The notes under the pieces are model-generated. The model did no database searches and had not been told where the DNA came from. It was given only the letters and a program-made list of their open reading frames with translations. The position numbers and the translations under genes were made by a program. Source: an uncultured Acidobacteriota bacterium (GTDB taxonomy: Bacteria; Acidobacteriota; Thermoanaerobaculia; Multivoradales; UBA5704). From it: DNA of 64,000 nt. Below, piece by piece: positions 3,575 to 51,760 of the stretch. Every line of letters begins with the position of its first letter. The first letter of the stretch is position 1. The DNA is taken from contig CAWCIU010000008.1 of the NCBI GenBank assembly GCA_963795735.1, forward strand, positions 1,751,836 through 1,815,835, read 5' to 3'.

Positions 3575-3602
3575 GGTGGAAGGGTCTGGAAAGGAGCCGC
3601 TC

Positions 3603-4097: not shown

Positions 4098-4156
4098 GGG
4101 AGCAACCCCGGCGTCCTTCCTCCGTATACTCTCCAGCGCTCAACAGGAGAATCCCC

Positions 4157-6232: not shown

Positions 6233-6321
6233 CGCCCGTTTTGTTGTAACATTCGCGTCACATTGATGGTTGTTTCTGCCCGCCCCTAAGGTGGGTTTCG
6301 TCATTCTCGGGGGGAAAATCC

Positions 6322-29500: not shown

Positions 29501-30018
29501 TACCGGCGCACGCTCGTCCAATCCGCGGCTTCCGGCGGGGCCGTCTCCGTCAGGAACCGGTCGAAATCCGCCAGCGATCCAACGACAGGGCCATCGCCGG
29601 CCATCGGCTCCAGGCACTCCCGGCTCATCCACGGAAGCGCCTGGGGAGACCCTTGCAGGGAGCCGTCGGGAAGGACCAGGGCGGGTATCCAGAGCGGGAA
29701 GTATCTTTTTTTGGCGTCGCCCTTCTGAACGGTTCCGTGCTGAAAATCGCGTGCGATCGTCATGGGAGCGATCAGGATCGGCACGTAGCTCGGCGCGGCG
29801 GGCCTTTCCTCCTGGACGGTCTGCGCCCCGGCGCGAGCGCCCCGCTCGCGTTCCGCGCACCAGAAGATCTTCTGGGTCAGGGCTTGCGGGAGATTGCCGC
29901 CCACGATCTCCAACGGATGAAGAAGAAACGCGCCGTCTTCGCTCACGACGGGCGAGCGCAGGTCCGCGTCGGCAAGGCTGTTGCGCCAGTACCGGATCAG
30001 CGCCCGGGTCCGATCCAT
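26572..30018 (-). CDS. Superfamily-1 (Upf1/DNA2-like, COG1112) helicase fused to C-terminal PLD-family HKD nuclease; Mokosh type II (MkoC)-like candidate defence protein
   Basis: Walker A GPPGTGKTT, LIVDEAGQ, VVGDLHQIEP, TVHTFQGAE, VAASRAKDSFLVFGD. C-terminal HSKTLAVDDHWIVEGSFNWLS HKD motif. Confidence 0.7.
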   Translation of the reverse strand: MDRTRALIRYWRNSLADADLRSPVVSEDGAFLLHPLEIVGGNLPQALTQKIFWCAERERGARAGAQTVQEERPAAPSYVPILIAPMTIARDFQHGTVQKGDAKKRYFPLWIPALVLPDGSLQGSPQALPWMSRECLEPMAGDGPVVGSLADFDRFLTETAPPEAADWTSVRRYASQMLQAVAHCVPSALVLDGFRVLDQQGVVLLWKDEKGVGRPLIELYDEVLGRDSTPRLLGSFAAAEEPAAAPSAHDLGRETLATRHCGQMGRSFPLSPSQRQAIHCALPLAAGRILAVNGPPGTGKTTLLQSVVASLWVEAALGDREPPVIFACSTNNQAVTNILESFAAAACEGSDPLAERWLPDLGAYGLHLPSADKFKEAKYQQAFPGNPWRGLPESMENRAYVERAEAFFVTRARTVLPRERCGSVKEIVRHLQERLVAVQGELAACIGEAREVQAWRTRYGCLGTEEARRRIDQDRESLEARMAEEAALYDEVLAAEGAIPLWTNLLAFLPPVRRHRDRHLSMPFLRRRREPPPVHGPDGARSLLDALRKTLDALKSQIPELRPWQELEARFAARVEELQDNRSDFQALGKEALERPELILDLLDCGPRHRLFLLAGRYWEGRWLLEMERLLASDQRLDRRSRSACEERFRRFAKLTPCLVATIHRSPKVFDSFDPGRERNVPMFDFLDLLIVDEAGQVTPEVGAAAFSLAKRGLVVGDLHQIEPVWGIGPSIDTANLRKAGLETDLDGGEDAIAHRASRGSLMLMARRATAVTREDDRGLFLGEHRRCVPEIIRYCNELVYKNRLRPLRPSKQERILPPLGWAHITSPEEISSGSRRNPGEARAIADWLARHRDDLERHYEAPIERIVAVITPFAAQRWVLAGAFKAQGLPAIKAGTVHTFQGAESPVVLFSPVYSLASTQKIPHRLFFDAGPNLLNVAASRAKDSFLVFGDLRLFDRNKPHLPSGLLGRFLFESPDHEITDVEAAQHLVGMEDTNRISTLAGHREMLSRALTRSTDRVLVVSPFLTERALEADGIPEAVGAARSRGVQVCVVYSVDLNQGVRKASALKAAEGLRQAGAEVVASNRMHSKTLAVDDHWIVEGSFNWLSAVRDEGDRYQRYEASICCEGPGARRLIQSAWREVLGRDSP

Positions 30019-36510: not shown

Positions 36511-36721
36511 GACGTTCTTCCTCCGAGTGTAAAATCTGCCTTAAGGGATACCAACCTCTCCGCGGGAGGGCCGGCCGCCACGCCGTCCTGGACGGAGGTC
36601 GTGGACGGAGGAAACTCGTCCTTGCAGAAAACCTGCCGGTGTGTCCCTTCCTGAGGAGGTGTCCTGCTCGAGGATCAGGAGCTGGTATGCTGTCCGTGAA
36701 AGAGAGCCAGGAAACCCGTTC

Positions 36722-36958
36722 ATGCGAGCCATCAAGCTTCAAGCCCACGTCGAGAAGGATCACACCCTGAGCCTCAAGCTCCCGGAGGACGTGCGCGAGG
36801 GTCCCGCGGAAGTCATTGTCCTCGTCCCGGACAAAGCCGCGAAGCCCTCCCACTCGCTGAGCGATTTCTTGACCCGACTGCCTCGCCGTCCTCGCCAACT
36901 CCGCTCGAAGGAAGAGATCGACCGCTACCTGGAACAAGAGCGCCAGAGCTGGAAGTAG
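36722..36958 (+). CDS. type II antitoxin (VapB-like), 78 aa
   Basis: Small acidic/basic protein immediately upstream (2-bp gap) of a PIN toxin gene. Confidence 0.5.
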   Translation: MRAIKLQAHVEKDHTLSLKLPEDVREGPAEVIVLVPDKAAKPSHSLSDFLTRLPRRPRQLRSKEEIDRYLEQERQSWK

Positions 36959-36960
36959 CA

Positions 36961-37371
36961 ATGGCGAGCGTCTACCTGGACAGCTGCATCGTCATTTATC
37001 TGATTCAAGGTCCAGAAGAGCTGAGCAAGGCCATTCTCCAGGCTCTCCGCCCAAGCGAGGGAGAACCTCCCTGGTCCTTGTTCTCGGATCTGACCCGGCT
37101 GGAGTGCAGAGTCTGGCCCATGCGGCAGGGCAATGACCAACTCCTTCACCAGTTTGATGAATTCTTTGCGAGCGAGGATCTCACTAGAATTCCCATGACG
37201 GCCGAAACCTTCGACCTCGCGACAGAACTACGAAGTCTCCATGGCGTCAAGACGCCTGATGCACTGCATCTCGCGGCTGCCATTCTTGGAGAGTGCCAGG
37301 AGTTTTGGACCAATGACCTGCGGCTGAGCGCGTCAGCCGAGAAACGGATCGAGGTCAGGGTCTTCTCGTAA
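36961..37371 (+). CDS. vapC: PIN-domain toxin VapC
   Basis: YLDSCIVIYL (Asp in strand 1), TNDLRL near the C-terminus. PIN fold, 136 aa. Confidence 0.7.
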   Translation: MASVYLDSCIVIYLIQGPEELSKAILQALRPSEGEPPWSLFSDLTRLECRVWPMRQGNDQLLHQFDEFFASEDLTRIPMTAETFDLATELRSLHGVKTPDALHLAAAILGECQEFWTNDLRLSASAEKRIEVRVFS

Positions 37372-37466
37372 GTGGGCTGGGGGTAGCCAGGACGGCTGAT
37401 CACGGGTTTTCTTCGCAGAAAGCCTGCCGGTTTCCTTTCCCGGGGATCGGCCGGGAGGGGAAGCCT

Positions 37467-38063
37467 TCAGCGGCAGAGGACCATCGAGACGGCCAGCGCG
37501 AGCAGGGTGACCAGGGCGGCGAGCCCCAGCCCCGCCGGCAGCGCCAGGGGCGGCGGACCTCGCCGGAGGAGCGGGCGGGCGGCGAGGACCACGGTGGTCA
37601 GGGAGATCGCCAGGAAGACGAGCCCCACGGCGAGCGCGGCGGTCCAGCCGGCCTCCCGGAGCAGGAGCGCCATCACGGCCCCGCCGAGAGCGGAGTAGAT
37701 GACCGGCACGCCGATCAGGATCCAGAGCCATTCCCCCAGGCTCACCGGTCCGGACGGCGGCGGGGGCTCCTCGACCCTCCGCAGCCGGCCGCGATGGAGC
37801 CACAGGACCACACCGGCGGCGGCCATCAGGGCGAAATGCAGCCAGAGGAACCGGTCGACATACCAGCCGGTCGCCGGCGGGTAGTACCGCCAGTGGCCGC
37901 CGCGGAACCGGATGCCGTACGTGTGGAGGGCGTCGGGAGCCGGCACCCATCCCCACGTCGTCAGCGCATAGCCCACCCAGAAATTGACGAACAGGAGGAC
38001 GAAGACCACCCCGAAGGCCACCGGGGTCCGGCCGGTCCAGACGAAGCGGACGGACGTTTTCAT
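37467..38063 (-). CDS. integral membrane protein (5-6 TM), unknown function
   Basis: Hydrophobic profile. Adjacent to the tandem repeat array and the peptide genes. Confidence 0.4.
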   Translation of the reverse strand: MKTSVRFVWTGRTPVAFGVVFVLLFVNFWVGYALTTWGWVPAPDALHTYGIRFRGGHWRYYPPATGWYVDRFLWLHFALMAAAGVVLWLHRGRLRRVEEPPPPSGPVSLGEWLWILIGVPVIYSALGGAVMALLLREAGWTAALAVGLVFLAISLTTVVLAARPLLRRGPPPLALPAGLGLAALVTLLALAVSMVLCR

Positions 38064-38165
38064 CGATCGTTTCCCGCCGGCGGTCCCCCAGGGAGGGGGC
38101 CAGCGCCGCGAAGCTTATCCGACCGGAAGACGCCGGCGCCGTGTCCGCCGGCGCGCCTTCCGCCA

Positions 38166-38360
38166 AGGTTGGCGCAGAGCGCGTGAAGCTTGGCGCGGAG
38201 TGCGCGAAGCTTGGCGGGGAACGCGTGAAGGTTCGCGCGGAAGGCGTGAAGCTTGGCGCAGAGCACGCGAAGCTTGGCGCAGACCGCGTGAAGCTTGACG
38301 TGGAGCGCGTGAAGCTTGGCGCAGAGCGCGTGAAGGTTGGCGCGCTCTGCGCCAAAGCGA
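38166..38360. repeat. Tandem array of ~9 x 21-bp units (consensus ttGGCGCAGAGCGCGTGAAGC, each containing AAGCTT), ending in a perfect palindrome ggcgcgctctgcgcc
   Basis: Seen directly: ggcgcagagcgcgtgaagctt ggcgcggagtgcgcgaagctt ggcggggaacgcgtgaaggtt ... Period is 21 bp, i.e. two helical turns. Confidence 0.8.
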
Positions 38361-38415
38361 AGAAAGCGCCTTCACCCTGCCAGGAGCGGAGCCCCGGCCG
38401 CACCTTCCCTGCTTC

Positions 38416-38583: not shown

Positions 38584-38770
38584 ACGGGGCCTCCTTTTTG
38601 AAGAGCTGCCATTCTACTCCCCAATTCGCCCTGCGGTGCTCCCGGCGGGACGTCTTTTCTAAGGGTTCGCCGCTCCATCGGCCACGCCCGGGTGAGAAGG
38701 TCCCCAGCCGGGGCGGCGTCTCGGAGCCGTCCGGACCCGCCACCCCGTCCTCAATCGGAAAACGACCGCG

Positions 38771-38998
38771 CTACTGGGCGCAGACGCACCAGGAGAAGGC
38801 GTTGGAGTCGGCGCAATGATTGGCGTCCCCCGAGGCGCAGAACTGCTCGTTGCAGTACGTGTACGACGCACCGCACACGTTGACGCTGTCGCACCCGGGT
38901 CCGCTCAAGGTGCCGCCGATGACGTGCCCGAGGGCAGGGTCCGTCAGATGCCGCAAGGTCTACCGGTGGAGAGTCAGGCTCTTCTTCAGCCTCTTCAT
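38771..38998 (-). pseudogene. second bacteriocin/RiPP-like precursor with in-frame TAG in leader: MKRLKKSLTLHR*TLRHLTDPALGHVIGG-TLSGPGCDSVNVCGASYTYCNEQFCASGDANHCADSNAFSWCVCAQ
   Basis: RBS ggagga plus ATG at 38998. The TAG sits at the codon that is GAG (Glu) in the paralog. Downstream is a double-glycine-type leader end (VIGG) and an 8-Cys core. The ORF-track call 38771..38956 starts at an internal TTG. Confidence 0.55.
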
Positions 38999-39527
38999 GT
39001 TTGTATCCTCCTACCGTCCAGAGTGCGTTCCGCGCCGGAAGGCGATACGGGCCGCCGAGAGGGCGGGGAGGGCTGGTTCACTCCCGTGAGAACGAAGACC
39101 GGCCCTGCGAGCCAGCAACGCCCGTCCTCGGAGGCGGTAGAGACGTTCCCAGGCGATGAACGACATCTTGGGGAGTCCACGGGGACGGCGGGACGTCTCT
39201 TCGGAGGGTTCGCCGAGATCCCGTAAAGGTCGACACACATCCCGTAACGTTCGCACTGTGCGCCAAGGCTGGGGGAGCCCCGGCAAGCTATGGGAGAGTG
39301 TGGAAGGTGGCAAAGACAGCGCGAATACTGGCGGAAAGTTAACGATGGACTTTTCAACGTGTTTCGCTTGAGATACAATGGCTCTATAAGCTAACCTGAG
39401 GCCTCCTGAAGGGTATGAACGAAGCGGCTGCCTGTCGAAGACATGGCTCTGCACTTCCAGACAACGGGTGAGGAATGAGGATTATTGGTTGGCATTCGTG
39501 TGTCATATCTCTGGGATCACTTGAATT

Positions 39528-41597
39528 TTGCACATCTTCATGACTTCACGCCAGTCAACATCTAGTCTCCAGAGCCGAGAGATACTGCTTCTTGAGGATA
39601 ACTCCGGGGCGTCGGAGAGGCGACATCAGGTCGGCGTCTCTCGTCAAATCGTTCACTCTACCATTACCATCAGGGTGCACCGAATAAGCGGTACATCTTC
39701 GCAACTAGCTGCGAGCAGGACCTACAAAGTCGGAACCTTATCCGGCGAGCGCAATGGGCGCATCCAACTCGCTATGCGTCTCCTTGATCGGGCTAAGCCT
39801 AAGAAGGGCTGCGTCGTCGCAGCTGGGACATCCTATGGCTCTGCGGCGACCTTTTTGAGGGCGCTGTCCAATATTGGTCTGTCCTTCGTTGTTCAGGTGA
39901 GGCCCAGCACATTGCTTGACGTGCTCGGAACGAAGGCTAAACTAAGCACGGCCGGGGAGCTACTGGCTGGAGGCCAATGGGAGGCGGTGACGTTGCCACT
40001 GCTGGACGGGACAAAAGTGGACTATGTAGCTGCTAAGCTGGCAGATGTCGACCTAACCATAGGTCCCGCCAAGCTCTTTGCCGCTCGTGTCGGTGGTGTA
40101 GAGGGCGCTCAGCGGAGTACGATCATCGGCCTCTCTTCCTTTGACGCGAGCATAAGTGAGCTTGTACAGATCATCGGCTACACACGATGGATAAGGCCGA
40201 TCTCCCGGAGACAGGACAGAGCGGCACGGGGGGTAGCCGGACGTGCGGAGCCAGAAGGTAATGCAGCAACTCTGAGAGCCCGCGCCAATATCACATCAGC
40301 TCGCCAGCAGGATGATCGTGCCAGAGAGGGGAATATGTACGTCCTCGGGTACTCCCCAAGAGGAGTTCTGCAATCCTGTGGGTCAACTCTTAACGTCGCA
40401 GAGTTGTTTGCGGGCGCCGGTGGTATGGGGCTTGGCTTTCTCTTGGCAACCGGAGGAGAGGGACGCTACCGTCTCGTATATTCCGGAGAAGTGAATCCAA
40501 TCTACGTCCAGACGCTTCGAACGAACCATGAAGCATTACCGGGCGTCGTGGGCGGAGCCGGTGAAGCGCTTATTCCCGAGTATACGGAGGCGGCGGATCT
40601 GCGACGAGAGGAAACCCTGGCTAGCGTCAAAGAGGTCGGGTGCCAAAAGGGTGGCATTCACGTGCTCATTGGTGGCCCCCCATGCCAAGGATTTTCCATG
40701 GCTAATCGCAATTCTTGGCACGGTCGCAACCCGCACAATCGCCTCGTGGATGTATTTTTTAAATACGTCGAAGAGCTCCGCCCAAAAGTCTTCCTAATGG
40801 AGAACGTGCAGGGGATCCTCTGGACTCCTAAGGGAGGTAGGCCGGTCTCGGTTGTTGACGTCATAGAACGTCGTATGCGAGCGGCAGGCTACATAGTATT
40901 TCCAAAGCTACTCGACGCAGTATGGTATGGCGTGCCTCAGCATAGGACTCGCTTCTTTCTAATGGGACTCCACCGTGATCTTGGATATCGCTCCGACAGC
41001 TTTGGAGAATGGGGGCCGTTTCCTGTTCCGACGCATGGCGGAGAGTCCTCGCCGTGGGTAACGACAAGGGAAGCACTTGCCGATCTTCCCCGCATAGGCA
41101 ATGGTGCGTCGGTGGAGGATCTCGCCTATATTGACCCTTCGCCTGCTGCGCTAAAACAGAATCCATTCCTCAATTACATCAGGGATGGGGCTGAGCGTGG
41201 TTTGGTCTTTGACCACGTAACCTCTAGGCATGCTGAATATGTAATCGACCGCTATCGTAAAATACCGCCTGGCGGTAATTGGGAAAGCATCCGCGAAGAA
41301 CTATCTAACTACGCCGATGTTTCGCGCACCCACAGCAATATTTACCGTCGCCTGCGATGGGACGAACCATCTATTACGATTGGACATTATCGCAAGAGTA
41401 TGCTCGTGCACCCTAGTCAGCATCGAGGTCTCTCCCTTCGCGAGGCGGCGCGGCTGCAATCGTTTCCCGATTGGTTTCACTTCGCGGGAACAGTAAGCGG
41501 GCGTGATGGAGGAATTGTTCATAAACAACAGCAACTCGCTAATGCTGTCTGCCCGCTGGTAACGAAAGCTGTTGCAGAGTTCATCCTGCATCTATGA
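39528..41597 (+). CDS. DNA (cytosine-5)-methyltransferase with ~280-aa N-terminal extension of unknown function; DruM-like
   Basis: Motif I AELFAGAGGMGLGF, motif IV PPCQGFSMANR, ENV motif FLMENVQG, later QSFPDWFHF. Lower GC than flanking DNA. Confidence 0.8.
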   Translation: MHIFMTSRQSTSSLQSREILLLEDNSGASERRHQVGVSRQIVHSTITIRVHRISGTSSQLAASRTYKVGTLSGERNGRIQLAMRLLDRAKPKKGCVVAAGTSYGSAATFLRALSNIGLSFVVQVRPSTLLDVLGTKAKLSTAGELLAGGQWEAVTLPLLDGTKVDYVAAKLADVDLTIGPAKLFAARVGGVEGAQRSTIIGLSSFDASISELVQIIGYTRWIRPISRRQDRAARGVAGRAEPEGNAATLRARANITSARQQDDRAREGNMYVLGYSPRGVLQSCGSTLNVAELFAGAGGMGLGFLLATGGEGRYRLVYSGEVNPIYVQTLRTNHEALPGVVGGAGEALIPEYTEAADLRREETLASVKEVGCQKGGIHVLIGGPPCQGFSMANRNSWHGRNPHNRLVDVFFKYVEELRPKVFLMENVQGILWTPKGGRPVSVVDVIERRMRAAGYIVFPKLLDAVWYGVPQHRTRFFLMGLHRDLGYRSDSFGEWGPFPVPTHGGESSPWVTTREALADLPRIGNGASVEDLAYIDPSPAALKQNPFLNYIRDGAERGLVFDHVTSRHAEYVIDRYRKIPPGGNWESIREELSNYADVSRTHSNIYRRLRWDEPSITIGHYRKSMLVHPSQHRGLSLREAARLQSFPDWFHFAGTVSGRDGGIVHKQQQLANAVCPLVTKAVAEFILHL

Positions 41598-41598
41598 C

Positions 41599-43596
41599 AT
41601 GAGCTCCTTCGAAAGGTATACCCTCTGGAACTATATGTTGGCGGAGCAATGCCTGCTAACGGGTTCTAATCAAGGCGCTGTACTGCTCACGGTAACGCCG
41701 CGGATCCTCGCTGCTGCGTTGGATGAGGCTAAAGAAGGATTGCAATCACCTGAGGAGGCTGAGGCGGACTTCGTTACAGCTGTAACATTTGTTTATAAGG
41801 AACATGTGCTGCGAAGGCCAGAAAGGTTGCGAGCTTTAAAGTCGTCGGATAAGACAGAGGTTCCCTTAAGTGTCGGGTTCCTCGCTCTTTCCGTTCTCGC
41901 TGCCTACCGTATGCGTACTGATGGTGAGCGCACAGGACGGGCCTATTATGCGAGGCTTGGCGAGATGGTCGGCTGTGGGCTAGTTGGTAATTTTCCCCTA
42001 GGGTTTGATCCAGATGCATTCGTGGAATTATGGGATGAGCTGGCGCAATGGCTCGAAACTCAGTACGGCCGACGGCTTGTCCTTCCTGTGGCTGGGGGTG
42101 TGCAAAAGTTCGTAGCCTACCCTCTTGCACATGTTCCATTGCGACGAGTGGACATTGATCGACTACCGCAGTTCTTTGATTCCTACGGTTACGAGCCAGG
42201 GATGCGCGCTCCGTTGGATTCGCTTGCCTACGATCTCTATAAAGGAGCCGGTCCTTGGCGACATCTAACGAGAGTAGGTCAACGTGCTCTGGAAGATCCG
42301 GGCCGTCGTCCTTTCGTGATTCGGCAAGTCGCCCATGAACTCGAGCACTGGGATGGCTGTCGAACTGACTCATACGGCACGCGGATAGCCACCATCGCAT
42401 TGTGGATGGACATCCGTCGACGGCGGGTTCAACTCTCCTTGCTCGCCAGACGGCCCCAGGGCTTTCCTGAAGAAATTGAGAATGAAGATCTTGTTTTTGT
42501 TTCAAGCCAAGAGGGATGGTACGAGCCAATCCTGCTCGGGCCCGATGACGGTGCTCTTCTCAGTGAGGGTCTTCGAATAGACGCCTGTGCATCCGGCAGT
42601 CGCTGTCTTCTCCAGCTTCGTGGATTCACTGTCGTTCCGTTAACGCCCTCTGAAGAGTATGCGGGTCTTGTTTCGGATTCCGTCCTGCGCGCGGGCACGC
42701 GATGTGCGGTGCTCTGTGCGGAATCGATGATTGAGGATGTTTCTCGATACCTTGAGTTGCTGAACAACGGGCCCGTTTATCCTCGCCGCGATGAGAACCT
42801 ACCTAAAGGCTGGTGCCTGTTCACCGATGTCGAGCTGTCTTCCGATGCCGCTCCGCCGGTTGGCCTCGAGCGTCTCCGGGCCGAGGCCAGTATTGCTCTG
42901 GTCCCTGTGGGAGGGCTGCGCCTCGGGCGTCGTTGGACTTGGCTGGAAGGTGCATCTGCGTGCCTCAGGATCGTCGGCGCTCGTCAAGGGCTAGAAGTAC
43001 GCGTCGATGGGCAAGAGGCGAAACTGGACAGCGAAGGACATCTGCCTGCCGCTCTCTTGAGGGCCGAAGGAACGCATGTTGTTGAGGTCGGTAACCGGTT
43101 GAGACAACTGATCGCTGTACTACCTGGCGCCGTGAATCCGGAGTGCAGGTCTTGGGAATGCAACGAGCCAATTCTCAGCCGGATTCCCGTAGCAGTACCT
43201 GAGGGACATTGGGCTGTTATTGGGTCCGTACCTGGCGAACTCGCAACCGTATTTGCGTCTTCCGAAGGTGCGCTCATCCGGCCAGACTTCTTTGCCCGGT
43301 GGGCAGTGAAGATAGGTACTCGTCGTAGTGCAACCGCGCTTCATCTCCATGACGTGGGTGCCTCTTTAATGGCCGAGTGGGATAGGGATGACGTAACAAG
43401 GATTCAAGCCCCGTGTTTACGCGCGGGGTTTACTTCGGCTCAGTCGTGGGCGGAAATAATCTATCAGGCCGGAATTCGCAGACCGCATCTCGTGTGTACA
43501 TTAAAGTGCCAAGTCCAGGAGCTTGCAGCTGAATGGCGACGCTTAATGGAGAAGGCACGCTCTGTGAAGCGGGAGATAAAGAGGGGGCGCCGGTGA
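41599..43596 (+). CDS. hypothetical protein (665 aa), DruF-like position in Druantia type II-like operon
   Basis: The ATG lies 2 nt after the MTase stop. No recognisable motifs. Confidence 0.5.
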   Translation: MSSFERYTLWNYMLAEQCLLTGSNQGAVLLTVTPRILAAALDEAKEGLQSPEEAEADFVTAVTFVYKEHVLRRPERLRALKSSDKTEVPLSVGFLALSVLAAYRMRTDGERTGRAYYARLGEMVGCGLVGNFPLGFDPDAFVELWDELAQWLETQYGRRLVLPVAGGVQKFVAYPLAHVPLRRVDIDRLPQFFDSYGYEPGMRAPLDSLAYDLYKGAGPWRHLTRVGQRALEDPGRRPFVIRQVAHELEHWDGCRTDSYGTRIATIALWMDIRRRRVQLSLLARRPQGFPEEIENEDLVFVSSQEGWYEPILLGPDDGALLSEGLRIDACASGSRCLLQLRGFTVVPLTPSEEYAGLVSDSVLRAGTRCAVLCAESMIEDVSRYLELLNNGPVYPRRDENLPKGWCLFTDVELSSDAAPPVGLERLRAEASIALVPVGGLRLGRRWTWLEGASACLRIVGARQGLEVRVDGQEAKLDSEGHLPAALLRAEGTHVVEVGNRLRQLIAVLPGAVNPECRSWECNEPILSRIPVAVPEGHWAVIGSVPGELATVFASSEGALIRPDFFARWAVKIGTRRSATALHLHDVGASLMAEWDRDDVTRIQAPCLRAGFTSAQSWAEIIYQAGIRRPHLVCTLKCQVQELAAEWRRLMEKARSVKREIKRGRR

Positions 43597-44489
43597 AGTG
43601 GGACTTGCTGCTTGAGTGGATGACACACATGGGCTCGGGCCACTGGGGTGCATTCCGCGAGGCCGTGGCGGAGCTTGCCGACCCCGATGATCCTGAGATG
43701 CCGGTGCTGGCCCAGAAGCTTCGTATTGCTCTTTCGGACCTTGGCCACGTGGATTTTTTCGTTGATGGGCCCCGACGCTGGCAGGTACTGCGGCCGGCCT
43801 TAGTTGGCTTGGCTGGTAGCAACGCGCACCTGTTCGTAGGCGGTCGTACCCGGCATCTTGCCGAGAAGTTGACATCGAGCCTGCTGGAAGGTGGAGCGTC
43901 GGTATCCATCACAAAAATCAATCCCGGGCTTGCACGTATCTGCCTGGAGGGCCCACAAGAGATTCTGCGCGCGACCGCCAAAGACCTCGGGCTTGAATAT
44001 GTGCCTGTAGCCTCAGCTCTGCTTGCTTCCCGACTTCTGCCGCTGCGGCATACGATCGAGTGGGCTCCTGCTCGTCCAGAGCCGATCAACTGGGCCGTAC
44101 GATCGTGGTCGTTTGAGAGCAAAGCGTGGATTCATGGCAGGTTCGCGCGTACTGCACTAGAGTACACTAACCGGCATGGGGCAAGTAGATACATGATCGA
44201 TCTTGGCCATGCCGGCCTTCGGGACTTCAACAAGCGCGTATCCATTTACGGGGCGGCTTTTTTGAAGGGTAGGCGGATTATCCGCTACTGCTTCGAGAGA
44301 GAACGCCTTCTGGTACCCCGTTGGGCTCCACTCCCGGAGCCTTATTCCCGTGTGGCGTGCTTGGCTGGCGGGCAACTCGCCACCGTTCAGGAAGATGATC
44401 TTGTCTTTGAATCCGTCACCCCCAATATAGCGTCGATGCTCTTGATTGCACTAGGACAGGGGTATCCAAAGCACGGAGATGTTTTATGA
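43593..44489 (+). CDS. hypothetical protein (~298 aa), DruG-like position
   Basis: GTG start overlapping the upstream stop (GTGA) with RBS agaggggg. The stop overlaps the next ATG (ATGA). Confidence 0.5.
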   Translation: MKWDLLLEWMTHMGSGHWGAFREAVAELADPDDPEMPVLAQKLRIALSDLGHVDFFVDGPRRWQVLRPALVGLAGSNAHLFVGGRTRHLAEKLTSSLLEGGASVSITKINPGLARICLEGPQEILRATAKDLGLEYVPVASALLASRLLPLRHTIEWAPARPEPINWAVRSWSFESKAWIHGRFARTALEYTNRHGASRYMIDLGHAGLRDFNKRVSIYGAAFLKGRRIIRYCFERERLLVPRWAPLPEPYSRVACLAGGQLATVQEDDLVFESVTPNIASMLLIALGQGYPKHGDVL

Positions 44490-47400
44490 ATGATCCATTT
44501 TTTACATTCCACCAGCTTCGGGAGACCTACCTTCGGTATCTGGACAGCCCTTTTCGCCTCAGGTATAAGGCACTGATGGAGGAGCGTCGCACTCTCCTTG
44601 ATCGGGATCGACAGCTCTACCGAGAACCTCTCTTTGAGCCAGTCGTGCCGTATGAGTCATCGAAATTGACCATGCGAGGTGCGTGTTCGCATCTCGGGGT
44701 TTCATCTGATGTCGCAGAGTATCTGGATACCGGTGGCCTCTTTCCGTCGAGTCGCGAACTCTTCCAGCATCAATTGGATGCTTGGGAATCTTCGCGCAAG
44801 GGTGATGCCGTGATCGTGACGACGGGTACAGGGTCCGGGAAGACGGAGTGCTATCTGCTCCCAGTGTTCGCCTACCTCGTTGAGGAATCGACAAGATGGG
44901 GTGCGCCATCGGCACGCTCGCCTCACTATCTCTGGTGGTCTCACCCACGGCAGCAACGTATCCCGCAGCGTGCCCACGACACTGGTCGAGCTAAGGCTCT
45001 TCGCGCACTTTTTTTGTACCCGCTTAATGCGCTTATCGAGGATCAGCTAGGGCGGATACGCACGGCTTGTGATGGTCCCAATGGACGGCGGTGGCTGACG
45101 AACTGCCGGGCCGGAAACCGTTTTTGGTTCGGGCGCTATACGGGTGCCACGCCTGTTTCGGGGCCCCAAACCAACGCTAAGCGACAAGAGTTGAAGCGGC
45201 GCCTGCAAGACATAGAAGATGAGTGGGATCGTGCCCGACTTTCCGCTGCCCGATCCGGTAACGATGACATTCTCTCCTATTTCCAAGACCCTGATGGAGC
45301 GGAAATGTGGTCTCGCTGGGATATGCAGGAGGATCCGCCGGACATTCTCATCACTAACTATAGCATGCTTAACATTATGTTAATGAGGAGCCTGGAGAGT
45401 GACGTATTCGACCAGACGAAGGCGTGGCTCGCGCAGGATCGCGACAGGAATGTGTTTCACCTCGTTGTGGATGAGCTCCATACCTATCGAGGCACACCCG
45501 GAACTGAAGTAGGCTATCTGCTTCGCGCATTGCTGCACCGCCTCGGCCTAACTCCGGACTCGCCGCAGCTTCGAATTATTGCGACAAGTGCTTCGATTGA
45601 TGCAAATGATCCAGGAAGTACCGAATATTTGGAGGAATTTTTTGGGAGAGACCCATTGACCTTCAAGATCATCGAAGGGAAGCGGACTGCCTTCTCAAGC
45701 GGAAGCGGCACGCGAAGTGCTCAGCCCTTCGTTGTCTTCGGACAGGGGCTCGAGGAAGGAACTCTCGCTACTGCCGTCGCACGCCTCGCGGCTGATACAG
45801 GTGTTATACCGCGAGAGTCGAGTCCCGAGCGTCGGCTGGCCGAGGTACTCAGCACCACCGGTGTTATGGAGCTGGTGCGTTGCGAAGGAGAGCAGGGACC
45901 ATTTACGAGCACGCGCCTTGGAGAGTCCCTCTTCGGGACAGATCCCGATGCAGGGGTAGCTACCCATGCCATAATTAGGGGGCTGATCCTCGCGCGGGAG
46001 GTACGGGGTGGGTTAGAAGTCGCTCCTCTTCCCCTCAGAGTACATTACTTTTTTCATAATGCTGGGCGGCTTTGGGTCTGCGTTAATCCACAGTGCTCTG
46101 GACGTACAGGGACCACGTCACCGGGTGCCGAGGTGCCTCCGGTTGGTAGACTCTATGTTGAGCCGCGGCCGCGCTGCGAAAACTGTAATGCCCGCGTACT
46201 CGAGCTTCTATATTGTCAGCCGTGTGGAGAGGTTTTTGTTGGTGGCTATCGTGCCGAAGATTGCAACATCAATAATGCATGGTTTCTATCGCCTGACTTT
46301 CCCGACCTGGAGCATGTCCCAGACCGGTCGACCTCACCAAAGAGGATTCACATTGAGTACCTTGTTTTCTGGCCCGCAAACGGGCGACCATTGGTGCGCA
46401 GTAATCATGCGGGCCCATCTTGGGGGTGGCAGCAAGACGGGCAGGCAGGCTATCAGTGGCGCCCGGCCTCGCTCGACATGGTGGAAGGCCGCCTCTCTCT
46501 AAGCCCGCCCCGGCGCTCCACTAGCCCATCCGAGATAGCAGGTTATGCCTTCATTGCTCCTTTGGCTCATGCCGATGCTTTTCCTGCAAAGTGTCCCCAC
46601 TGTGCGGCAAACTGGGGCAGGCGCCTTGGTGTTAAGTCTCCGATCCGAGATCTCGGATCTGGTTTTCAACGCATCATGCAGATTCTCGGCGACGCACTCG
46701 TACGTGAGATTCCTGAAGGACCGGGCCGGAAGCTGGTTCTTTTCTCAGATTCCCGACTTGATGCAGCGAAGCTCTCAACGGGGATCAAGCTCGCACATTA
46801 CAGGGATACTCTCCGCCAGATCGCATTTGAGACTCTTGGTACGGCGGGCACTGCGGCAAAGCGACTTCATCAGGAGAATCAGGAGATATCTCAGCAGGCG
46901 ATTGAGCTGTACGCCTTGCTACAGAAGCGGGAGGCGGAAGGCCTCTCCGACCGAGAGAATGCACGCCGGAAAGAGCTGATGAGCGCCCTTCCTGGAAGCA
47001 TCGTTGGGGATCTTACAAAGTACGCAGTGACAGGTGGAACTCCTCCCAATGTTCTCGTGCCTCCGGTGCCTCCTGGGGCTCTCATATTCATGCCCTTCCG
47101 ACAGCTCATCGATCTTGTACGTACGCAATTGTTCTCCAAGGGTATAAACCCGGGCGGCCCGTTGCCATCAGTCGCGACATACCAGCCTCAGCGAAGTGGA
47201 CCAAAAGCCTTGTGGACAAATCTTCTCGACTGGTCGACAGCTCAGCCAAACTATCAGGCCGGTCTGCAGCCTCTGGAGCGGAACCTTCAAGCGAGCATCG
47301 AGGTCTCTCTTCGCGAGAACGTTATATCCAGCGTTCTCTTTGCATCAGCGGCAAGAGACTTCGAGTCTCTGGGGCTCGGCTACTTGTGGACCAGCAACGT

Positions 47401-50020
47401 TCCTCCCTCAACTACGGTTCGGCAAGCAGCGGCAAGCGTCGTGCGTATTCTTGCGCAGAAGTGGCGTTGGACCGGGTCCGATGCCCAAGGCAGTGGCCAA
47501 GCGCCAGCCTACGTGACAAGCTACCTTGAAAAGGTCTCTATGTATCTTGGTATAACCGCAGGTGACCTGCAGCGTGATGTCGAAGATTCTCTGGGTCCTT
47601 GCCTGGACCAATGGCTCGTACGTCCCGATTCGATGATAGTTGTCAGTCCACGACCTCACCACGATGGCACGATTGATATGTATAGGTGCGGCCGTTGCGG
47701 TTGCTCACACCTTCATGCTTCGGGCGGGTTCTGCATCGCGTGCCATGCGACGTTGCCTGCTGGTCCAGTACGGCACGACGTGACCGGTACTCCAACAGAT
47801 TATTACGAGTACCTGGGGCGATGCCTGGAAAGGCCATTCCGTCTTAATTGCGAGGAGTTGACTGGCCAGACTAACCGAGTAGATCGGCGCCTGAGGCAGA
47901 GGCGATTCCAAGAAGTATTCATGGATGATGAAGTCGAGGTGGCAAGTGGCGTTGACCTTCTGAGCGTGACGACTACCATGGAAGCTGGTGTCGATATCGG
48001 CGCTTTGCAGGTAATCGCTCTGGCGAATATGCCGCCGGTCCGCTTCAACTATCAGCAACGAGTTGGGCGAGCAGGCCGGCGTGGGCTCGGGCTTTCCGCC
48101 GCTCTCACGCTATGCCGCGGAAGGAGCCATGACGACTACTACTTCGAGCGGCCTCACCTCATCACTGCCGAGCCGCCTCCTCGCCCGTACGTGGACGTGA
48201 GTAGGCCAGAAATCGCTCGACGCGTAATAAACAAGGAGCTGTTGCAGCGCGCCTTTGCAACCCTGAATCTTCCGTACAGCGGAGACAATGTCCACGGCGA
48301 GTTCGGTTTGGTATTGGATTGGCCGGGCTATCGTGGTCAGGTCTTGGCATGGGTTAACGCCAATAGCCGGATGGTGGAAGATATCTGCCAAGTTATTTTG
48401 CGGCGCACTAAATTAAACTCGGCAGCGGCTTTCGCCTCTATAGTCCGCCATGTTACCAATGATTTGATTTCCCAGATAGACCACGTTGCGCAGAATAGTC
48501 TCGGCCACGACGCTCTCAGCGAACGACTTGCTTCTCACGGCGTGCTTCCTATGTTTGGGTTCCCGACCCGAGTTCGTTACTTATTCCACGGGGGGCCGCC
48601 TCGTGCCGATGCCGGCTGGCCTCCTGAACGCGGCGTCGTTGACCGGCAACTCGACATTGCTATTAGCCAGTTCGCTCCCGGAGCGCAAACTGTGAAAGAC
48701 GACCAACTTCTAACATCCGTCGGCGTAGTCAACTACTACCCCTCTGGACGAGCCATTGTCACAACTCCGAATCCGCTTGGGGACTTTGTACCGGTAGGTG
48801 TCTGCCGAAGGTGCCAAGCGTTGGTGGAAGATCCGGCACCGGTCGGAGGTTGCCCGTACTGCACTGCCCCTCGCGGCAAGGACGACTATAGGACGGTAAA
48901 TCTCTCCGAGCCTCCCGGGTTCATGACTTGGTGGTCCGTCGAAGCGGAGTACAACGGTGTTTTCGAGTTTACACCGCGTGCACTCAGGGCTCGAATGGGC
49001 CGTGCGCCAGGAAATCCTGCTAGGCTCCAAAACTTTGAGGTCGACCAAGGACCAGCGCGAATTCACCGCATTAACGACAACGGCGGCGAAGACTTTCTCT
49101 TTCAGAAAATTGCCGTCGGCGACATCTGGATAGTTGATCAGGCGTTTCAGCGAGCCCTCCAAGATCTCCCTGCCGATCGGCAGCGAGCCATCCCCCCGCC
49201 TCAGTATGACAGGTCCGCTGCGCCGCTCACTCGTGCTCTTGCATCGATCGGCAGCACCGACGTGCTTGTGGCAGGCATTCAGAGCGTTCCCGTTGGTATC
49301 ACCTTGAATCCTGCCAATCCGGAGTCGCGGGCGGCCTGGTACTCTTTCGGCTTCTTCTTACGAAGGGCCGCAGCGGTTGTTCTTGACGTGGCAGAAGCCG
49401 AGCTCGACGTTGGCATTCAGCCCATGATGGACATGCAGACGCCCTTCGCGCCGCCTTCTGCGCGCATCTTTATGTCCGACAGCTTGGAGAACGGGGCAGG
49501 CTATAGCACACACCTCGGAGAACCTTCAAGGTTCGAGGAACTTCTCCGCTTCATGATGGGGCAGGGAACATCGGGCGCATCAAAAGAATTTTTCGACCCG
49601 CTTGTCGGTACTCCTCATGAACACGAATGCTCAAGCTCCTGCCATCGTTGTCTGCGTGACTATGGCAATATGCCGTATCATCCGCTTCTCGATTGGCGTC
49701 TCGGGCTGGATATGGTCCGCCTCGCTCTGGATCATGCCGCGCCGATGGACCTGTCGCAGCCATACTGGGACAGCCTCTTGCAACGTACGGCTCCTCCATA
49801 CTTTAAGGGATTGAACTATACACAGACTACCCTCGCTAACCTACCGGCTGGCTACGACCCAGGGACGGGCGATGTCGTTATTCTCATCCACCCGCTCTGG
49901 GATCGTGATCCCGCTAATCTCCGGCCTGAGATTGTTGCGGCTGTAGCACAAGCGGAATCGCGGGGGTGGCGCTGGAAGCTCCAGACCATCTTCCGAGCAG
50001 TCCGGTTCCCCTACGAATAG
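44486..50020 (+). CDS. 1844-aa DEXH helicase with C-terminal DUF1998/MZB domain; DruE-like (Druantia) defence helicase
   Basis: Walker A VIVTTGTGSGKTECYLLP, DEXH VVDELHTYRGTPGTE, helicase C motifs (QQRVGRAGRRG), C-terminal Cys cluster CSSSCHRCLRDYGNMPYH. Homologous to the MrfA-like helicase at 410..3574. Confidence 0.75.
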   Translation: MNDPFFTFHQLRETYLRYLDSPFRLRYKALMEERRTLLDRDRQLYREPLFEPVVPYESSKLTMRGACSHLGVSSDVAEYLDTGGLFPSSRELFQHQLDAWESSRKGDAVIVTTGTGSGKTECYLLPVFAYLVEESTRWGAPSARSPHYLWWSHPRQQRIPQRAHDTGRAKALRALFLYPLNALIEDQLGRIRTACDGPNGRRWLTNCRAGNRFWFGRYTGATPVSGPQTNAKRQELKRRLQDIEDEWDRARLSAARSGNDDILSYFQDPDGAEMWSRWDMQEDPPDILITNYSMLNIMLMRSLESDVFDQTKAWLAQDRDRNVFHLVVDELHTYRGTPGTEVGYLLRALLHRLGLTPDSPQLRIIATSASIDANDPGSTEYLEEFFGRDPLTFKIIEGKRTAFSSGSGTRSAQPFVVFGQGLEEGTLATAVARLAADTGVIPRESSPERRLAEVLSTTGVMELVRCEGEQGPFTSTRLGESLFGTDPDAGVATHAIIRGLILAREVRGGLEVAPLPLRVHYFFHNAGRLWVCVNPQCSGRTGTTSPGAEVPPVGRLYVEPRPRCENCNARVLELLYCQPCGEVFVGGYRAEDCNINNAWFLSPDFPDLEHVPDRSTSPKRIHIEYLVFWPANGRPLVRSNHAGPSWGWQQDGQAGYQWRPASLDMVEGRLSLSPPRRSTSPSEIAGYAFIAPLAHADAFPAKCPHCAANWGRRLGVKSPIRDLGSGFQRIMQILGDALVREIPEGPGRKLVLFSDSRLDAAKLSTGIKLAHYRDTLRQIAFETLGTAGTAAKRLHQENQEISQQAIELYALLQKREAEGLSDRENARRKELMSALPGSIVGDLTKYAVTGGTPPNVLVPPVPPGALIFMPFRQLIDLVRTQLFSKGINPGGPLPSVATYQPQRSGPKALWTNLLDWSTAQPNYQAGLQPLERNLQASIEVSLRENVISSVLFASAARDFESLGLGYLWTSNVPPSTTVRQAAASVVRILAQKWRWTGSDAQGSGQAPAYVTSYLEKVSMYLGITAGDLQRDVEDSLGPCLDQWLVRPDSMIVVSPRPHHDGTIDMYRCGRCGCSHLHASGGFCIACHATLPAGPVRHDVTGTPTDYYEYLGRCLERPFRLNCEELTGQTNRVDRRLRQRRFQEVFMDDEVEVASGVDLLSVTTTMEAGVDIGALQVIALANMPPVRFNYQQRVGRAGRRGLGLSAALTLCRGRSHDDYYFERPHLITAEPPPRPYVDVSRPEIARRVINKELLQRAFATLNLPYSGDNVHGEFGLVLDWPGYRGQVLAWVNANSRMVEDICQVILRRTKLNSAAAFASIVRHVTNDLISQIDHVAQNSLGHDALSERLASHGVLPMFGFPTRVRYLFHGGPPRADAGWPPERGVVDRQLDIAISQFAPGAQTVKDDQLLTSVGVVNYYPSGRAIVTTPNPLGDFVPVGVCRRCQALVEDPAPVGGCPYCTAPRGKDDYRTVNLSEPPGFMTWWSVEAEYNGVFEFTPRALRARMGRAPGNPARLQNFEVDQGPARIHRINDNGGEDFLFQKIAVGDIWIVDQAFQRALQDLPADRQRAIPPPQYDRSAAPLTRALASIGSTDVLVAGIQSVPVGITLNPANPESRAAWYSFGFFLRRAAAVVLDVAEAELDVGIQPMMDMQTPFAPPSARIFMSDSLENGAGYSTHLGEPSRFEELLRFMMGQGTSGASKEFFDPLVGTPHEHECSSSCHRCLRDYGNMPYHPLLDWRLGLDMVRLALDHAAPMDLSQPYWDSLLQRTAPPYFKGLNYTQTTLANLPAGYDPGTGDVVILIHPLWDRDPANLRPEIVAAVAQAESRGWRWKLQTIFRAVRFPYE

Positions 50021-50550
50021 AGAGATTAGGGCGTCACAGGCTAGCCGTCACGTTATTAAAATGCTTAGCAGTTTGAAGAACGATTTAGAATAGGGACGAG
50101 ATGCCGCGCATTCCCTCGGGGCAGCGTGGGTTCTAGCCTGCTGACCGAAGGCCCGCAACCGCCCGTCTACTTGGAAGCCGCGGGAGCCCGGAAGAGATCG
50201 GGGGAGACGGGCCCGGTCTTCACGGAGAGGAACTGGTTTTCCCGGGTGATCTCGCCGTTCGAGGTCTCCCAGGCGCGGACGGGGAATCCCTCGGCGAGGG
50301 CGTTAGGCATTGAAAGCGGTGGGCGGCTTGCCCTGGGACCGCTCGAGGAAGGCCATGAACCGGGAGAGCAGGCCCTGCCGGTCCCGCAGGTCGGCGACGA
50401 GGCCGGCCGGCAGGTTCAGCGATCTGGCGGAGGACAGGCAGAACGCGCGGGCCGGCTGCCCTTCCCGGCGGAGCTCGAAGTCGGAGCCGGCGAATCCGTG
50501 CTCGACACTCTGGACTTCCAGAAGTAGACTAACTTAGTCCAGGAGATCTC

Positions 50551-50787
50551 ATGGGAGTCTACAACGTTCACGAAGCCAAGACCCACCTCTCCCGTCTGCT
50601 CGAGCGGGTGGCCGAGGGAGAAGAGATCATCATCGCGAAGAGTGGCCGGCCGGTCGCCAAGCTGGTGCGCGTGGCGGTCGAGCCGCGCCGGCCCGGACGG
50701 CTGAAGGACCGCATCCGGGTCGGCCCCGATTTCGACGATCCCCTTCCGGAGGAGGTCCTGGCCGCTTTCGGCGGGGACAAGGAGTGA
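50551..50787 (+). CDS. Phd/YefM-family antitoxin
   Basis: MGVYNVHEAKTHLSRLLERVAEGEEIIIAKSGRPVAKLV is typical Phd/YefM. Confidence 0.75.
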   Translation: MGVYNVHEAKTHLSRLLERVAEGEEIIIAKSGRPVAKLVRVAVEPRRPGRLKDRIRVGPDFDDPLPEEVLAAFGGDKE

Positions 50788-51164
50788 GGCTCCTCCTGGA
50801 CAGCCATGCCTTCCTCTGGTGGCTCGCCGAGGACCCGAAGCTCAGCGCCGGAGCCCGGGAGGCGGTCGCCGATCCCTCGTCGATCGTCCATGTCAGCGCC
50901 GCGAGCGTCTGGGAGCTTGCGATCAAGGCGTCTCTCGGGAAGCTGGATCTCGACGGCGCGGACCTGGTGGAGGAGATCGAGGAGAATGACTTCGTCGAGC
51001 TCCCCATGAGGGCGAGGCACTCGCTCGCCGCCGCCACCTTGCCCCGCCATCACGAAGACCCCTTCGATCGCATGCTGATCGCCCAGGCTCAAGTGGAAGG
51101 CCTGACGGTCGTCACCCGCGATCCCGCCTTTCGGGCCTATGGGGTCGCCATCCTTCCGACCTGA
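50784..51164 (+). CDS. vapC: PIN-domain toxin VapC
   Basis: GTG start overlapping the antitoxin stop (GTGA). LLDSHAFLWW...ASVWELAIK...PFDRMLIAQA is typical VapC. Confidence 0.75.
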   Translation: MRLLLDSHAFLWWLAEDPKLSAGAREAVADPSSIVHVSAASVWELAIKASLGKLDLDGADLVEEIEENDFVELPMRARHSLAAATLPRHHEDPFDRMLIAQAQVEGLTVVTRDPAFRAYGVAILPT

Positions 51165-51229: not shown

Positions 51230-51760
51230 TTCCATTCCAGCGGTGCCCCCCTGGATCTCCGTCATCGCCCTCTCTGCGCGCGCCATTGCCCTCCAGGCGT
51301 GCGCCTTCACCAACCAGGGGGACCTCATTGCCCTCTGGTGGTGCGTCATCGCCCTCTGGTTTTTCCTTCCGGCCCCCTGGTTTTGCGGGGTTGCCCACTG
51401 GAAATTCGACCCGGCCCTCTGGGTTGGCGGCTCCGCCCTTTAGTTTGATGGCTCCGCCCTCTGGTTTGACGGCGTGCCCCCTTCAGTCCGCGATACGTAA
51501 ACCCAGAGGGCCGCATCGCAAATCCAAGGGGCCGGCTCGAATTTCCAGGGGGCAGAGCCGCCGTCTCGTGGGGCGGAGCCGTAACCTCAGGGGGCCGATA
51601 CCGCAAACCAGGGGGCCGGGCTGGAAAAGCAAGGGGCGCGGCCGGAAATCCAATGGGCGCAGCCGGAAAACCAGGGGGCACGGCGGCCGCTCGGGTTCGC
51701 GCTGCGGGATTTCCAGGGGGCGCACCGGTCCTGGGGTCCCGGAGGAGGCCGCGCGGCCGC
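51230..51760. repeat. ~530-bp composite repeat: left array of ~11 x 21-bp units (cGGCnnnGCCCTCTGGTTTnA) and right array of ~11 units in inverted orientation (TnAAACCAGGGGGCnnnGCCg), centre near 51490
   Basis: Seen directly: ...cggctccgccctctggtttga... | ...aaacccagagggccg, aaatccaaggggccgg, atttccagggggcag, aaaccagggggccggg, gaaaaccagggggcacgg... 21-bp periodicity on both arms. Confidence 0.75.

Follow-up and report, generated by a model that had tools for sequence, protein, structure and literature searches.

A Druantia-family operon with a type IV core and a leading C5 methylase, probably horizontally acquired, in an uncultured Acidobacteriota bacterium

Four closely packed genes occupy a low-GC island

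We analyzed a 64,000-nucleotide (nt) stretch of contig CAWCIU010000008.1 (positions 1,751,836 to 1,815,835) from an uncultured Acidobacteriota bacterium, which we refer to here as the window. An initial annotation, made by reading the sequence, had pointed to a defense operon of the Druantia type II kind within an island of lowered GC content, and we assessed this assignment using profile searches, structure models, and comparison with related loci. In 1-kb sliding windows, the GC content is 0.53 to 0.59 over 39.0 to 50.0 kb and 0.67 to 0.72 on both flanks, confirming the annotated drop from 39.3 to 50.1 kb against a background of ∼70%. The left composition border falls at ∼39,300 (100-nt resolution), and the AT-rich stretch was read to end at ∼50,100, which marks the right border. 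The GC content at third codon positions (GC3) is 0.55, 0.53, 0.60, and 0.58 for genes 1 to 4 of the island, compared to 0.83 to 0.98 for flanking open reading frames (ORFs) with coding-type composition, a contrast far above chance or gene-to-gene variation within the window. The island consists of the following features, with protein lengths in amino acids (aa):

39300 to 39539, plus strand: AT-rich leader (GC content of 0.44 to 0.54 in 100-nt windows from 39,300)
39540 to 41597, plus strand: druM-like methylase gene; the ORF opens with a TTG at 39528, and translation from the ATG at 39540 gives 685 aa
41599 to 43596, plus strand: druF, 665 aa
43593 to 44489, plus strand: druL, 298 aa, with a GTG start overlapping the druF stop
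44486 to 50020, plus strand: druE, 1844 aa
50021 to 50100, plus strand: AT-rich tail and right boundary (from the end of blastn similarity to the nearest relative, L001, and sequence reading)

The four ORFs (39528 to 41597, 41572 to 43596, 43533 to 44489, and 44486 to 50020) share one strand and, as annotated, are laid out for translational coupling, with a GTGA overlap between druF and druL (43593 to 43596) and an ATGA overlap between druL and druE (44486 to 44489). Only the first junction had to be corrected: the stop codon TGA (41595 to 41597) is separated from the ATG at 41599 by one spacer base (TGAcATG) and not by two (TGAnnATG). The lengths previously given for the middle proteins, 665 and 298 aa, hold with starts at ATG 41599 and GTG 43593. 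Database homologues span 97 to 100% of each of the four proteins. None of the genes is truncated, and their catalytic motifs and overlapping junctions are preserved. The leader contains a candidate sigma-70-like site (TTTTCA, 17-nt spacer, TACAAT; 39351 to 39379), a consensus match only, seen once with 0.2 such sites expected.

The fourth gene encodes a giant DruE helicase

The product of gene 4 matched the PADLOC profile DruE4 over residues 1 to 1829 with 1802.9 bits, compared to 1557.3 and 1455.3 bits for DruE2, 591.7 bits for DruE1, and 372.2 bits for DruE3. It carries a Walker A motif (GTGSGKT, residue 114), DELH (329), SAS (368), and QRVGRAGR (1191), and Pfam recognizes DEAD and Helicase_C domains. 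Cysteines are clustered at residues 564/567/577/580, 703/706, 1068 to 1086, and 1440/1443/1456/1459, and in a terminal CSSSCHRC (1715 to 1722). The annotated giant helicase with a DUF1998 Cys cluster was thus borne out with respect to DELH, Helicase_C, and CSSSCHRC, and less so with respect to DUF1998 itself, for which the Pfam match is below threshold. The nearest solved chains are 9wae_A ("Helicase," 1970 aa; 3.7e-162), 9tu7_Y (2108 aa; 4.8e-47), and YprA 6znp (4.9e-13). By motifs and profile matches, DruE belongs to the YprA/MrfA family of superfamily 2 (SF2) helicases; its ATPase motifs are intact, and it has several Zn-type Cys clusters as well as an MZB/DUF1998-like module. Neither Pfam nor NCBIfam nor a Vsr hidden Markov model (HMM) detected a nuclease domain in DruE, the Vsr HMM being silent on the C terminus; for DruE of types I and II, an inactivated C-terminal Vsr-like domain was reported by Bell et al. 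(PMC12458937).

The middle genes encode DruF and DruL

Gene 2 matched the PADLOC profiles DruF2 (9.9e-33) and DruF4 (5e-21), and gene 3 matched DruL4 (1.4e-17) over positions 4 to 303 of 309. Gene 3 also matched the long DruF2 profiles in their C-terminal third (positions 706 to 980 of 1011; 4.9e-13), and DruF of the window aligned to positions 4 to 488 of the 1011-position DruF2 profile; to judge from these alignments, the long DruF2 profiles look like DruF-DruL fusions. Neither middle protein had a Pfam match, and at E ≤ 0.01 all DruG models of PADLOC-DB v2 remained without a match among the four proteins.

AlphaFold2 models of both proteins were built with alignments of database homologues. 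The DruL model (predicted local distance difference test [pLDDT], 93.5; predicted template modeling score [pTM], 0.90) has a secondary-structure string in which a helix-strand pattern is repeated approximately four times, and regulators of the MarR and Fur families are named beside it. DruL is accordingly modeled as a tandem winged-helix protein, a plausible binder of DNA or of a partner. The DruF model (pLDDT, 87.8; pTM, 0.71) comprises a helical N-terminal domain (residues ∼1 to 250), several immunoglobulin (Ig)-like beta-sandwiches (∼260 to 580), and a C-terminal helical region, with no enzymatic fold recognized. DruF of some relatives reaches 940 to 1040 aa, owing to an N-terminal extension. 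The gap of ∼1 kb seen there between the methylase gene and druF had been considered as an extra gene; it is actually this 300-aa extension of DruF, of low complexity according to Protein Data Bank profile matches.

The leading methylase carries an IS701-like N-terminal domain

Gene 1 had been annotated as a C5 methyltransferase with an N-terminal extension of ∼280 aa, and this was confirmed by a match to PF00145 at residues 289 to 686 (2.2e-44); TIGR00675 dcm matched as well (1.5e-36). Among the PADLOC profiles, generic type II methylases scored best, followed by DruM2 (2.1e-58) and then DrmMII (1.2e-45). The motifs FAGAGGMGLGF (FxGxG), GPPCQGFS (PCQ), ENVQG (ENV), and QHRTRFF (QxRxR) are invariant in 26 homologues, and the methylase moiety is predicted to be active. 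One database protein (P0001, 685 aa) is identical to the gene 1 product, and more than 120 database proteins of ∼680 aa align over 98% of it at 52 to 67% identity. DruF likewise has an identical database entry (P0121), and DruE led to a 9.8-kb Logan contig bearing the same genes. These full-length homologues ruled out a miscalled start or a pseudogene as the origin of the extension.

Across 26 diverse members, the N-terminal domain (residues ∼10 to 285) keeps the motifs ILLxEDNS, VRVHR, VVVAGxxYG, FVVEVRPS, LFAAQxGGIxGxHRGT, RWIRP, and RANITLARRQD. Its residues 78 to 222 matched the NCBIfam model transpos_IS701 (NF033540; positions 164 to 321 of 363, 3.2e-6), Pfam DDE_5 (PF13546) was matched at 0.0032, and many of the full-length homologues have a precomputed DDE_5 match. 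Going by these profile matches, the likeness to IS701/DDE_5 transposases is real but weak. Compared to the usual DDE pattern, the invariant G100 (VVAG100xxYG) stands at the inferred second catalytic Asp, and the RWIRP segment, which resembles an RW-I-E segment, has no Glu; because of these two replacements, the domain is probably a catalytically dead, domesticated IS701-type transposase fold. When 1.84 billion cluster representatives were searched with the domain alone by phmmer, only 84 proteins were retrieved, of which the full-length ones measure 590 to 720 aa. These sizes fit a methylase fusion of ∼680 aa, and the IS701-derived domain is thus almost confined to such methylases.

Close relatives mostly extend the operon by a nuclease and Vsr

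With each species represented by a single genome, a search yielded 273 DruE relatives, and 80 of their loci were taken for comparison by running locally built profile HMMs (methylase N-terminal domain, methylase, DruF, DruL, DruK, and Vsr) on all ORFs. In essentially all of the 80 loci that have upstream DNA, DruL lies directly 5' of DruE and DruF lies 5' of DruL, and by gene order DruF-DruL-DruE is the invariant core. What precedes this core changes with distance. Where DruE is at least 50% identical to that of the window, gene order is kept (L013, L014, and L022 are rearranged), and enough upstream DNA is available, the first gene encodes a methylase 57 to 67% identical to ours, in most cases with the N-terminal domain. 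At 40 to 43% DruE identity, C5 methylases are unrelated (24 to 32% identical to that of the window) and variable in position, or absent. At 36 to 37% (cyanobacteria, Poribacteria, and Dehalococcoidia), there is no methylase, and these loci represent strict type IV.

Of the 24 loci of the closest group for which sequence 3' of DruE was available, 18 carry a DruK gene directly behind DruE, usually with Vsr next in line. In most close relatives, the DruK gene starts within ∼30 nt of the DruE stop codon. DruK of the relatives is a protein of ∼390 aa (PADLOC DruK, 1.7e-18; Pfam PDDEXK_1), and the Vsr protein has ∼150 aa (PF03852, 6.6e-28). Vsr is a T:G mismatch endonuclease, a normal companion of 5-methylcytosine (m5C) methylases. 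Six loci of the closest group have no DruK within 10 kb, namely, the cyanobacterial loci L008, L012, L016, L020, and L021 from several genera, and L015.

Six-gene operons in the order DDE_5-type methylase, DruF, DruL, DruE (1844 to 1846 aa), PDDEXK_1 nuclease, and Vsr were found in Sorangium atrum (JAQNDK010000004.1, L162), in L163 (CDWKEC010000001.1), and in L164. The first two resemble the window in their methylase with a DDE_5-like N-terminal domain, DruF, DruL, DruE, and overlapping junction style, at ∼55 to 67% protein identity, but continue into DruK and Vsr, of which the window has neither. In L163 (1 to 9700), the operon stands beside a phage-type integrase, an HTH_17 excisionase-like gene, a resolvase, and small unknown genes, and an integrative element apparently carries the module; this integrase, HTH_17 gene, and resolvase are likewise not found in the window.

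tblastn and HMM searches revealed neither DruK nor Vsr in the whole 64-kb window, and in all six frames of 49,990 to 50,600 the two HMMs gave negative scores only, so that no remnant lies 3' of DruE. The blastn similarity to the nearest relative, L001 (DruE 74% identical), ends at 50,024 (island position 11025), 4 nt past the DruE stop codon. Thus, the window holds either the four-gene form or a six-gene module that was truncated behind DruE. The DruK and Vsr genes of the closest relatives, missing here, lay beyond the reach of the initial annotation, in which the letters of the window were all that was read.

Some relatives contain other genes. In L037 (DruE ∼43% identical), a 276-aa ORF (5643 to 6473) with a weak match to HhH-GPD, a base-excision glycosylase family (4.2e-4), lies between the methylase gene and druF. 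L043 (Sphingomonas sp. Leaf230; 15575 to 17482) and L024 (Caballeronia udeis; 15400 to 17271) have an ORF of ∼630 aa after DruE in the place of DruK; that of L043, the only one of the two scanned, encodes a GHKL/HATPase_c_3 protein. In both loci, the methylase gene is downstream on the opposite strand.

The island lies in a variable neighborhood

Neither a tRNA gene in the window nor flanking direct or inverted repeats around the island were found. No integrase was detected among the flanking ORFs scanned with Pfam, which cover part of the ORFs of the window; within this scope, the initial annotation, which saw no integrase, was right. The closest syntenic relative found, L082, a 375-kb metagenomic contig (Ga0193706_1000010), is syntenic with the window on the left side, where the shared genes have the following identities:

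HbpS-like gene: 95%
ArgZ-like gene: 84%
ABC (ATP-binding cassette) ATPase gene: 91%
ABC permease gene: 84%
GT2 glycosyltransferase gene: 84%

L082 has no Druantia genes in the 10 kb examined on that side. Past the GT2 gene, L082 continues into homologues of window genes located past a second defense gene, mkoC. It diverges past the HbpS-like gene, so that no exact empty site is definable. About 5 kb past the HbpS-like gene, in the equivalent neighborhood, L082 has a different low-GC patch (0.47 to 0.59; 500 to 4500), which suggests a recurrent insertion hotspot. Since this patch is different and neither Druantia nor MkoC is present there, the neighborhood is a variable region that gathers foreign and defense cargo.

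In the L082 patch, a 323-aa ORF with MvdD-type ATP-grasp matches (microviridin-like maturase of ribosomally synthesized and posttranslationally modified peptides [RiPPs]) adjoins a 310-aa ORF that has no Pfam match; elsewhere in our analysis, both are counted as ATP-grasp genes. HNH endonuclease genes lie alongside.

The mkoC gene itself (26572 to 30018, minus strand) is a full-length Mokosh type II gene (PADLOC, 1032 bits) encoding a superfamily 1 (SF1) helicase (AAA_11/AAA_12) with a phospholipase D (PLD) domain; its GC3 of 0.83 is a little under that of its neighbors. The ORF beside it (25474 to 26547) has a weak Ion_trans_2 match. Both are absent from L082, where the GT2 gene is directly followed by homologues of the window genes at 24454 to 25467 and 23677 to 24258.

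PIN toxin genes are present on both sides of the Druantia island. About 450 nt past the right edge, a toxin-antitoxin pair on the plus strand (50551 to 50787 and 50784 to 51164) encodes a Phd/YefM antitoxin and a PIN (VapC) toxin, with a stop/start overlap. A second PIN toxin gene (36961 to 37371, plus strand; PF01850, 2.1e-10) lies in a low-GC patch (0.52 to 0.65 over 36.5 to 37.4 kb), and the 105-aa ORF directly 5' of it (36641 to 36958, plus strand; no Pfam match) could be its antitoxin. Between the island and the toxin-antitoxin pair, the minus strand of 50150 to 50540 holds a gene remnant in which two frames join to ∼120 aa of C-terminal sequence; it has no start codon, a frameshift near 50,313, and a weak DUF4412 hint (E = 0.078).

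Left of the island, a small gene for a Cys-rich peptide (38771 to 39001, minus strand) reads MKRLKKSLTLHR, an in-frame TAG, and TLRHLTDPALGHVIGG, followed by a 46-aa core containing 7 Cys, and has no Pfam match. Its sequence resembles that of a bacteriocin or RiPP precursor with a double-glycine leader, broken by a stop codon. Around it, a 30-nt direct repeat, CGGCGGGACGTCTYTTCKRAGGGTTCGCCG, occurs at 38643 to 38672 and 39186 to 39215 (90% identical, 543 nt apart) and may be a shared regulatory element 5' of two minus-strand genes. About 10 tandem copies of the 21-nt unit AAGCTTGGCGCAGAGCGCGTG occupy 38123 to 38374, an array that is also an imperfect 90-nt inverted repeat and might be coding: in frame, it would give heptads such as KLGAERV (plus strand) or Ser/Pro/Phe/Thr-rich ones such as SAPSFTR (the minus-strand ORF 37333 to 38403). 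On the right, directly past the VapC stop codon, a block at 51247 to 51690 contains 21-nt-periodic repeats with the cores CCCTCTGG and CCAGGGGG in both orientations and 54- to 62-nt imperfect inverted repeats. No convincing ORF runs across this block, which could be an iteron-like or protein-binding array.

Discussion

We conclude, with a probability of roughly 0.7, that the island is a horizontally acquired Druantia-family defense operon in which a type IV core, DruF-DruL-DruE, stands behind a DruM-like C5 methylase with a domesticated IS701-type domain. All four proteins scored significantly on Druantia models (DruM2, DruF2/DruF4, DruL4, and DruE4). The same genes were not found in synteny with native-like composition, given their foreign GC3 and the absence of Druantia genes from L082. 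Druantia type IV as defined in PADLOC (Payne et al. 2021) consists of DruE, DruF, and DruL and is described as lacking DruM (PMC8565338); the absence of DruM and DruG belongs to the description and is not demanded by the profiles. The window has all three of these proteins, adjacent and in the same order, with DruE4 and DruL4 as the best profiles and DruF matched by both DruF2 and DruF4. As in type IV, there is no DruG; unlike in the description of that type, both the window and its subclade (DruE identity of 50% or more) have a C5 methylase as the first gene, with its extra N-terminal domain. A giant YprA-family DruE of ∼1800 to 2100 aa with a DUF1998/MZB module is common to Druantia of any type and is also present here. 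The SF2 core is shared with YprA/MrfA helicases, and the solved type III DruE structures share the RecA1/RecA2 core, the Zn-binding Cys clusters, and the MZB/DUF1998 module. Type III DruE, however, has PLD nuclease domains and the partner DruH, whereas DruE of the window has no detectable nuclease and is accompanied by DruF, DruL, and a methylase.

Several observations count against this conclusion. The Pfam match of DruE to MZB/DUF1998 is under the curated cut-off (20.6 versus 24.2 bits, E = 7e-4), and the inactivity of the N-terminal DDE domain is drawn solely from motif reading. The insertion junctions of the island are not defined. In none of the four proteins was a nuclease recognizable by PADLOC, Pfam, NCBIfam, the Vsr HMM, or the models. 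This copy may also be unable to restrict, since it has lost DruK and Vsr, which 18 of 24 close relatives possess. Our literature search gave no experiment on type II or IV Druantia, so that every mechanistic step is drawn by analogy.

The alternative closest to our assignment is the type II label of the initial annotation, i.e., a canonical DruM-DruF-DruG-DruE operon (scheme of Doron et al. 2018, as summarized in PMC8565338 and PMC10273834) with the 298-aa protein as a divergent DruG. Gene number and order agree with this label: four codirectional genes, C5 methylase first and DruE last. DruM2, DruF2, and DruE2 were all matched strongly, DruF2 being even the best DruF profile, and the DruL-like C-terminal region inside the long DruF2 profiles shows types II and IV to be closely related. 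Nevertheless, the third gene is DruL4-like and matched no DruG model, the DruE4 score of DruE exceeds its DruE2 score by ∼245 bits, and L037 and L043, which have other methylases, also carry a DruL-like gene rather than DruG directly 5' of DruE. Furthermore, Druantia types I and II have been described as a "type IV CoCoNuT" with an inactivated homologue of CnuB (an McrB-like GTPase) and an extended coiled coil in the operon (PMC12458937), and a fold of the McrB/CnuB kind was not recognizable in the models of DruF and DruL. Of the annotated scheme, the Druantia family, the DruM-like methylase, DruF, and DruE stand, and we consider type II itself quite improbable. The other candidate of the initial annotation was a DISARM-like system with DrmMII and a fused DrmA/DrmB helicase. 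DruE, DrmA, and DrmB are indeed all members of the YprA family (PMC12458937), DrmMII profiles matched the methylase, and DrmA profiles matched DruE weakly (9e-9). The DrmA matches, though, reach only 26 to 32 bits over ∼70 residues of the RecA2 motif region, compared to 1803 bits for DruE4, and on gene 1, DrmMII ranked below both generic type II methylases and DruM2. The island has no DrmB, DrmC (PLD), DrmD, or DrmE and no PLD domain, and DISARM has no counterparts of DruF and DruL. The PADLOC scores thus effectively refuted this reading, which we regard as extremely improbable.

Whether the operon still acts is a separate matter. It might be a decaying remnant, i.e., a six-gene module that lost DruK and Vsr by deletion and no longer restricts, with at most an orphan methylase acting. 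Such decay would fit the usual position of DruK directly after DruE, in most cases with Vsr, the stop of similarity to the nearest relative 4 nt past DruE, the truncated, frameshifted opposite-strand gene in the next 400 nt, and the lack of a recognizable nuclease in the remaining proteins. It fits less well with four full-length ORFs that have kept their catalytic motifs and overlapping junctions. Moreover, the five cyanobacterial loci and L015 keep four genes, which argues that this form is viable, and many loci of the distant methylase-less clade also lack DruK. Decay therefore appears unlikely, although it is the weightiest of the alternatives, and because independent four-gene lineages exist, we rate a functional four-gene variant somewhat above a nonrestricting remnant, by a small margin. 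A bolder proposal would treat the methylase-first, DruL-containing architecture, with or without DruK and Vsr, as an undescribed Druantia subtype. In it, the IS701 domain would function in restriction, either as a sensor of DNA structure or methylation status that docks the methylase onto DruF-DruL-DruE or as a cryptic nuclease, and the four-gene form of the window and of cyanobacteria would restrict by its helicase alone, with no nuclease devoted to the task. This combination is, in our estimation, as doubtful as the type II label.

For a Druantia-family operon with the composition favored here, m5C self-marking combined with helicase-driven restriction would, by analogy, be the most likely overall mechanism. 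The methylase would mark host DNA with m5C at some motif. We infer this self-mark because methylases are fixed in the subclade, Vsr co-occurs with them, in line with m5C systems in general, and Druantia is treated as methylation based: reviews class it so (PMC12904381), and type I Druantia has been linked to host DNA methylation (10.1101/2024.04.14.589459). Like type III DruE, a 3'-to-5' helicase on single-stranded DNA and forks (10.64898/2026.05.13.724758; 10.64898/2026.05.13.724313), DruE might load on exposed single-stranded or forked DNA and move 3' to 5' with ATP. DruL, with its tandem winged helices, and DruF, as a helical and Ig-like scaffold, could serve as nonenzymatic adaptors that contact DNA and make DruE activity depend on methylation status. 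Where DruK is present, as in the six-gene relatives, it would cleave foreign DNA once this is unwound and is the likely effector nuclease. The copy in the window, like the cyanobacterial relatives with four genes, would have to restrict by unwinding or displacement alone or through host nucleases, unless it is attenuated.

The Druantia family is already known as a kind of system, and a locus such as this one would be flagged by automated tools. According to a recent DruE phylogeny (10.64898/2026.05.13.724313), ∼40% of Druantia loci are of types II and IV. For these two types, our literature search turned up no mechanistic or experimental study; the mechanisms that have been solved all concern type III. 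In the literature searched, there was also no description of the methylase-first architecture with DruL, the IS701-derived methylase domain, the DruK-Vsr tail, or the DruF and DruL folds; searches for the names DruK and DruL gave unrelated acronyms only.

For annotation, these loci blur the boundary between types II and IV, and the rule that type IV lacks DruM fails for a large subclade. For experiments, they offer a framework in which the DruF-DruL-DruE core is universal, the methylase bears a transposase-derived domain nearly exclusive to this system, and the nuclease and Vsr tail is optional. The natural four-gene and six-gene homologous operons provide a ready comparison, which could reveal if DruK acts as the effector and if methylation serves to discriminate self from nonself. 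The importance of the operon would rise if its nuclease-less form proved to be active or if the transposase-derived domain proved to be functional.

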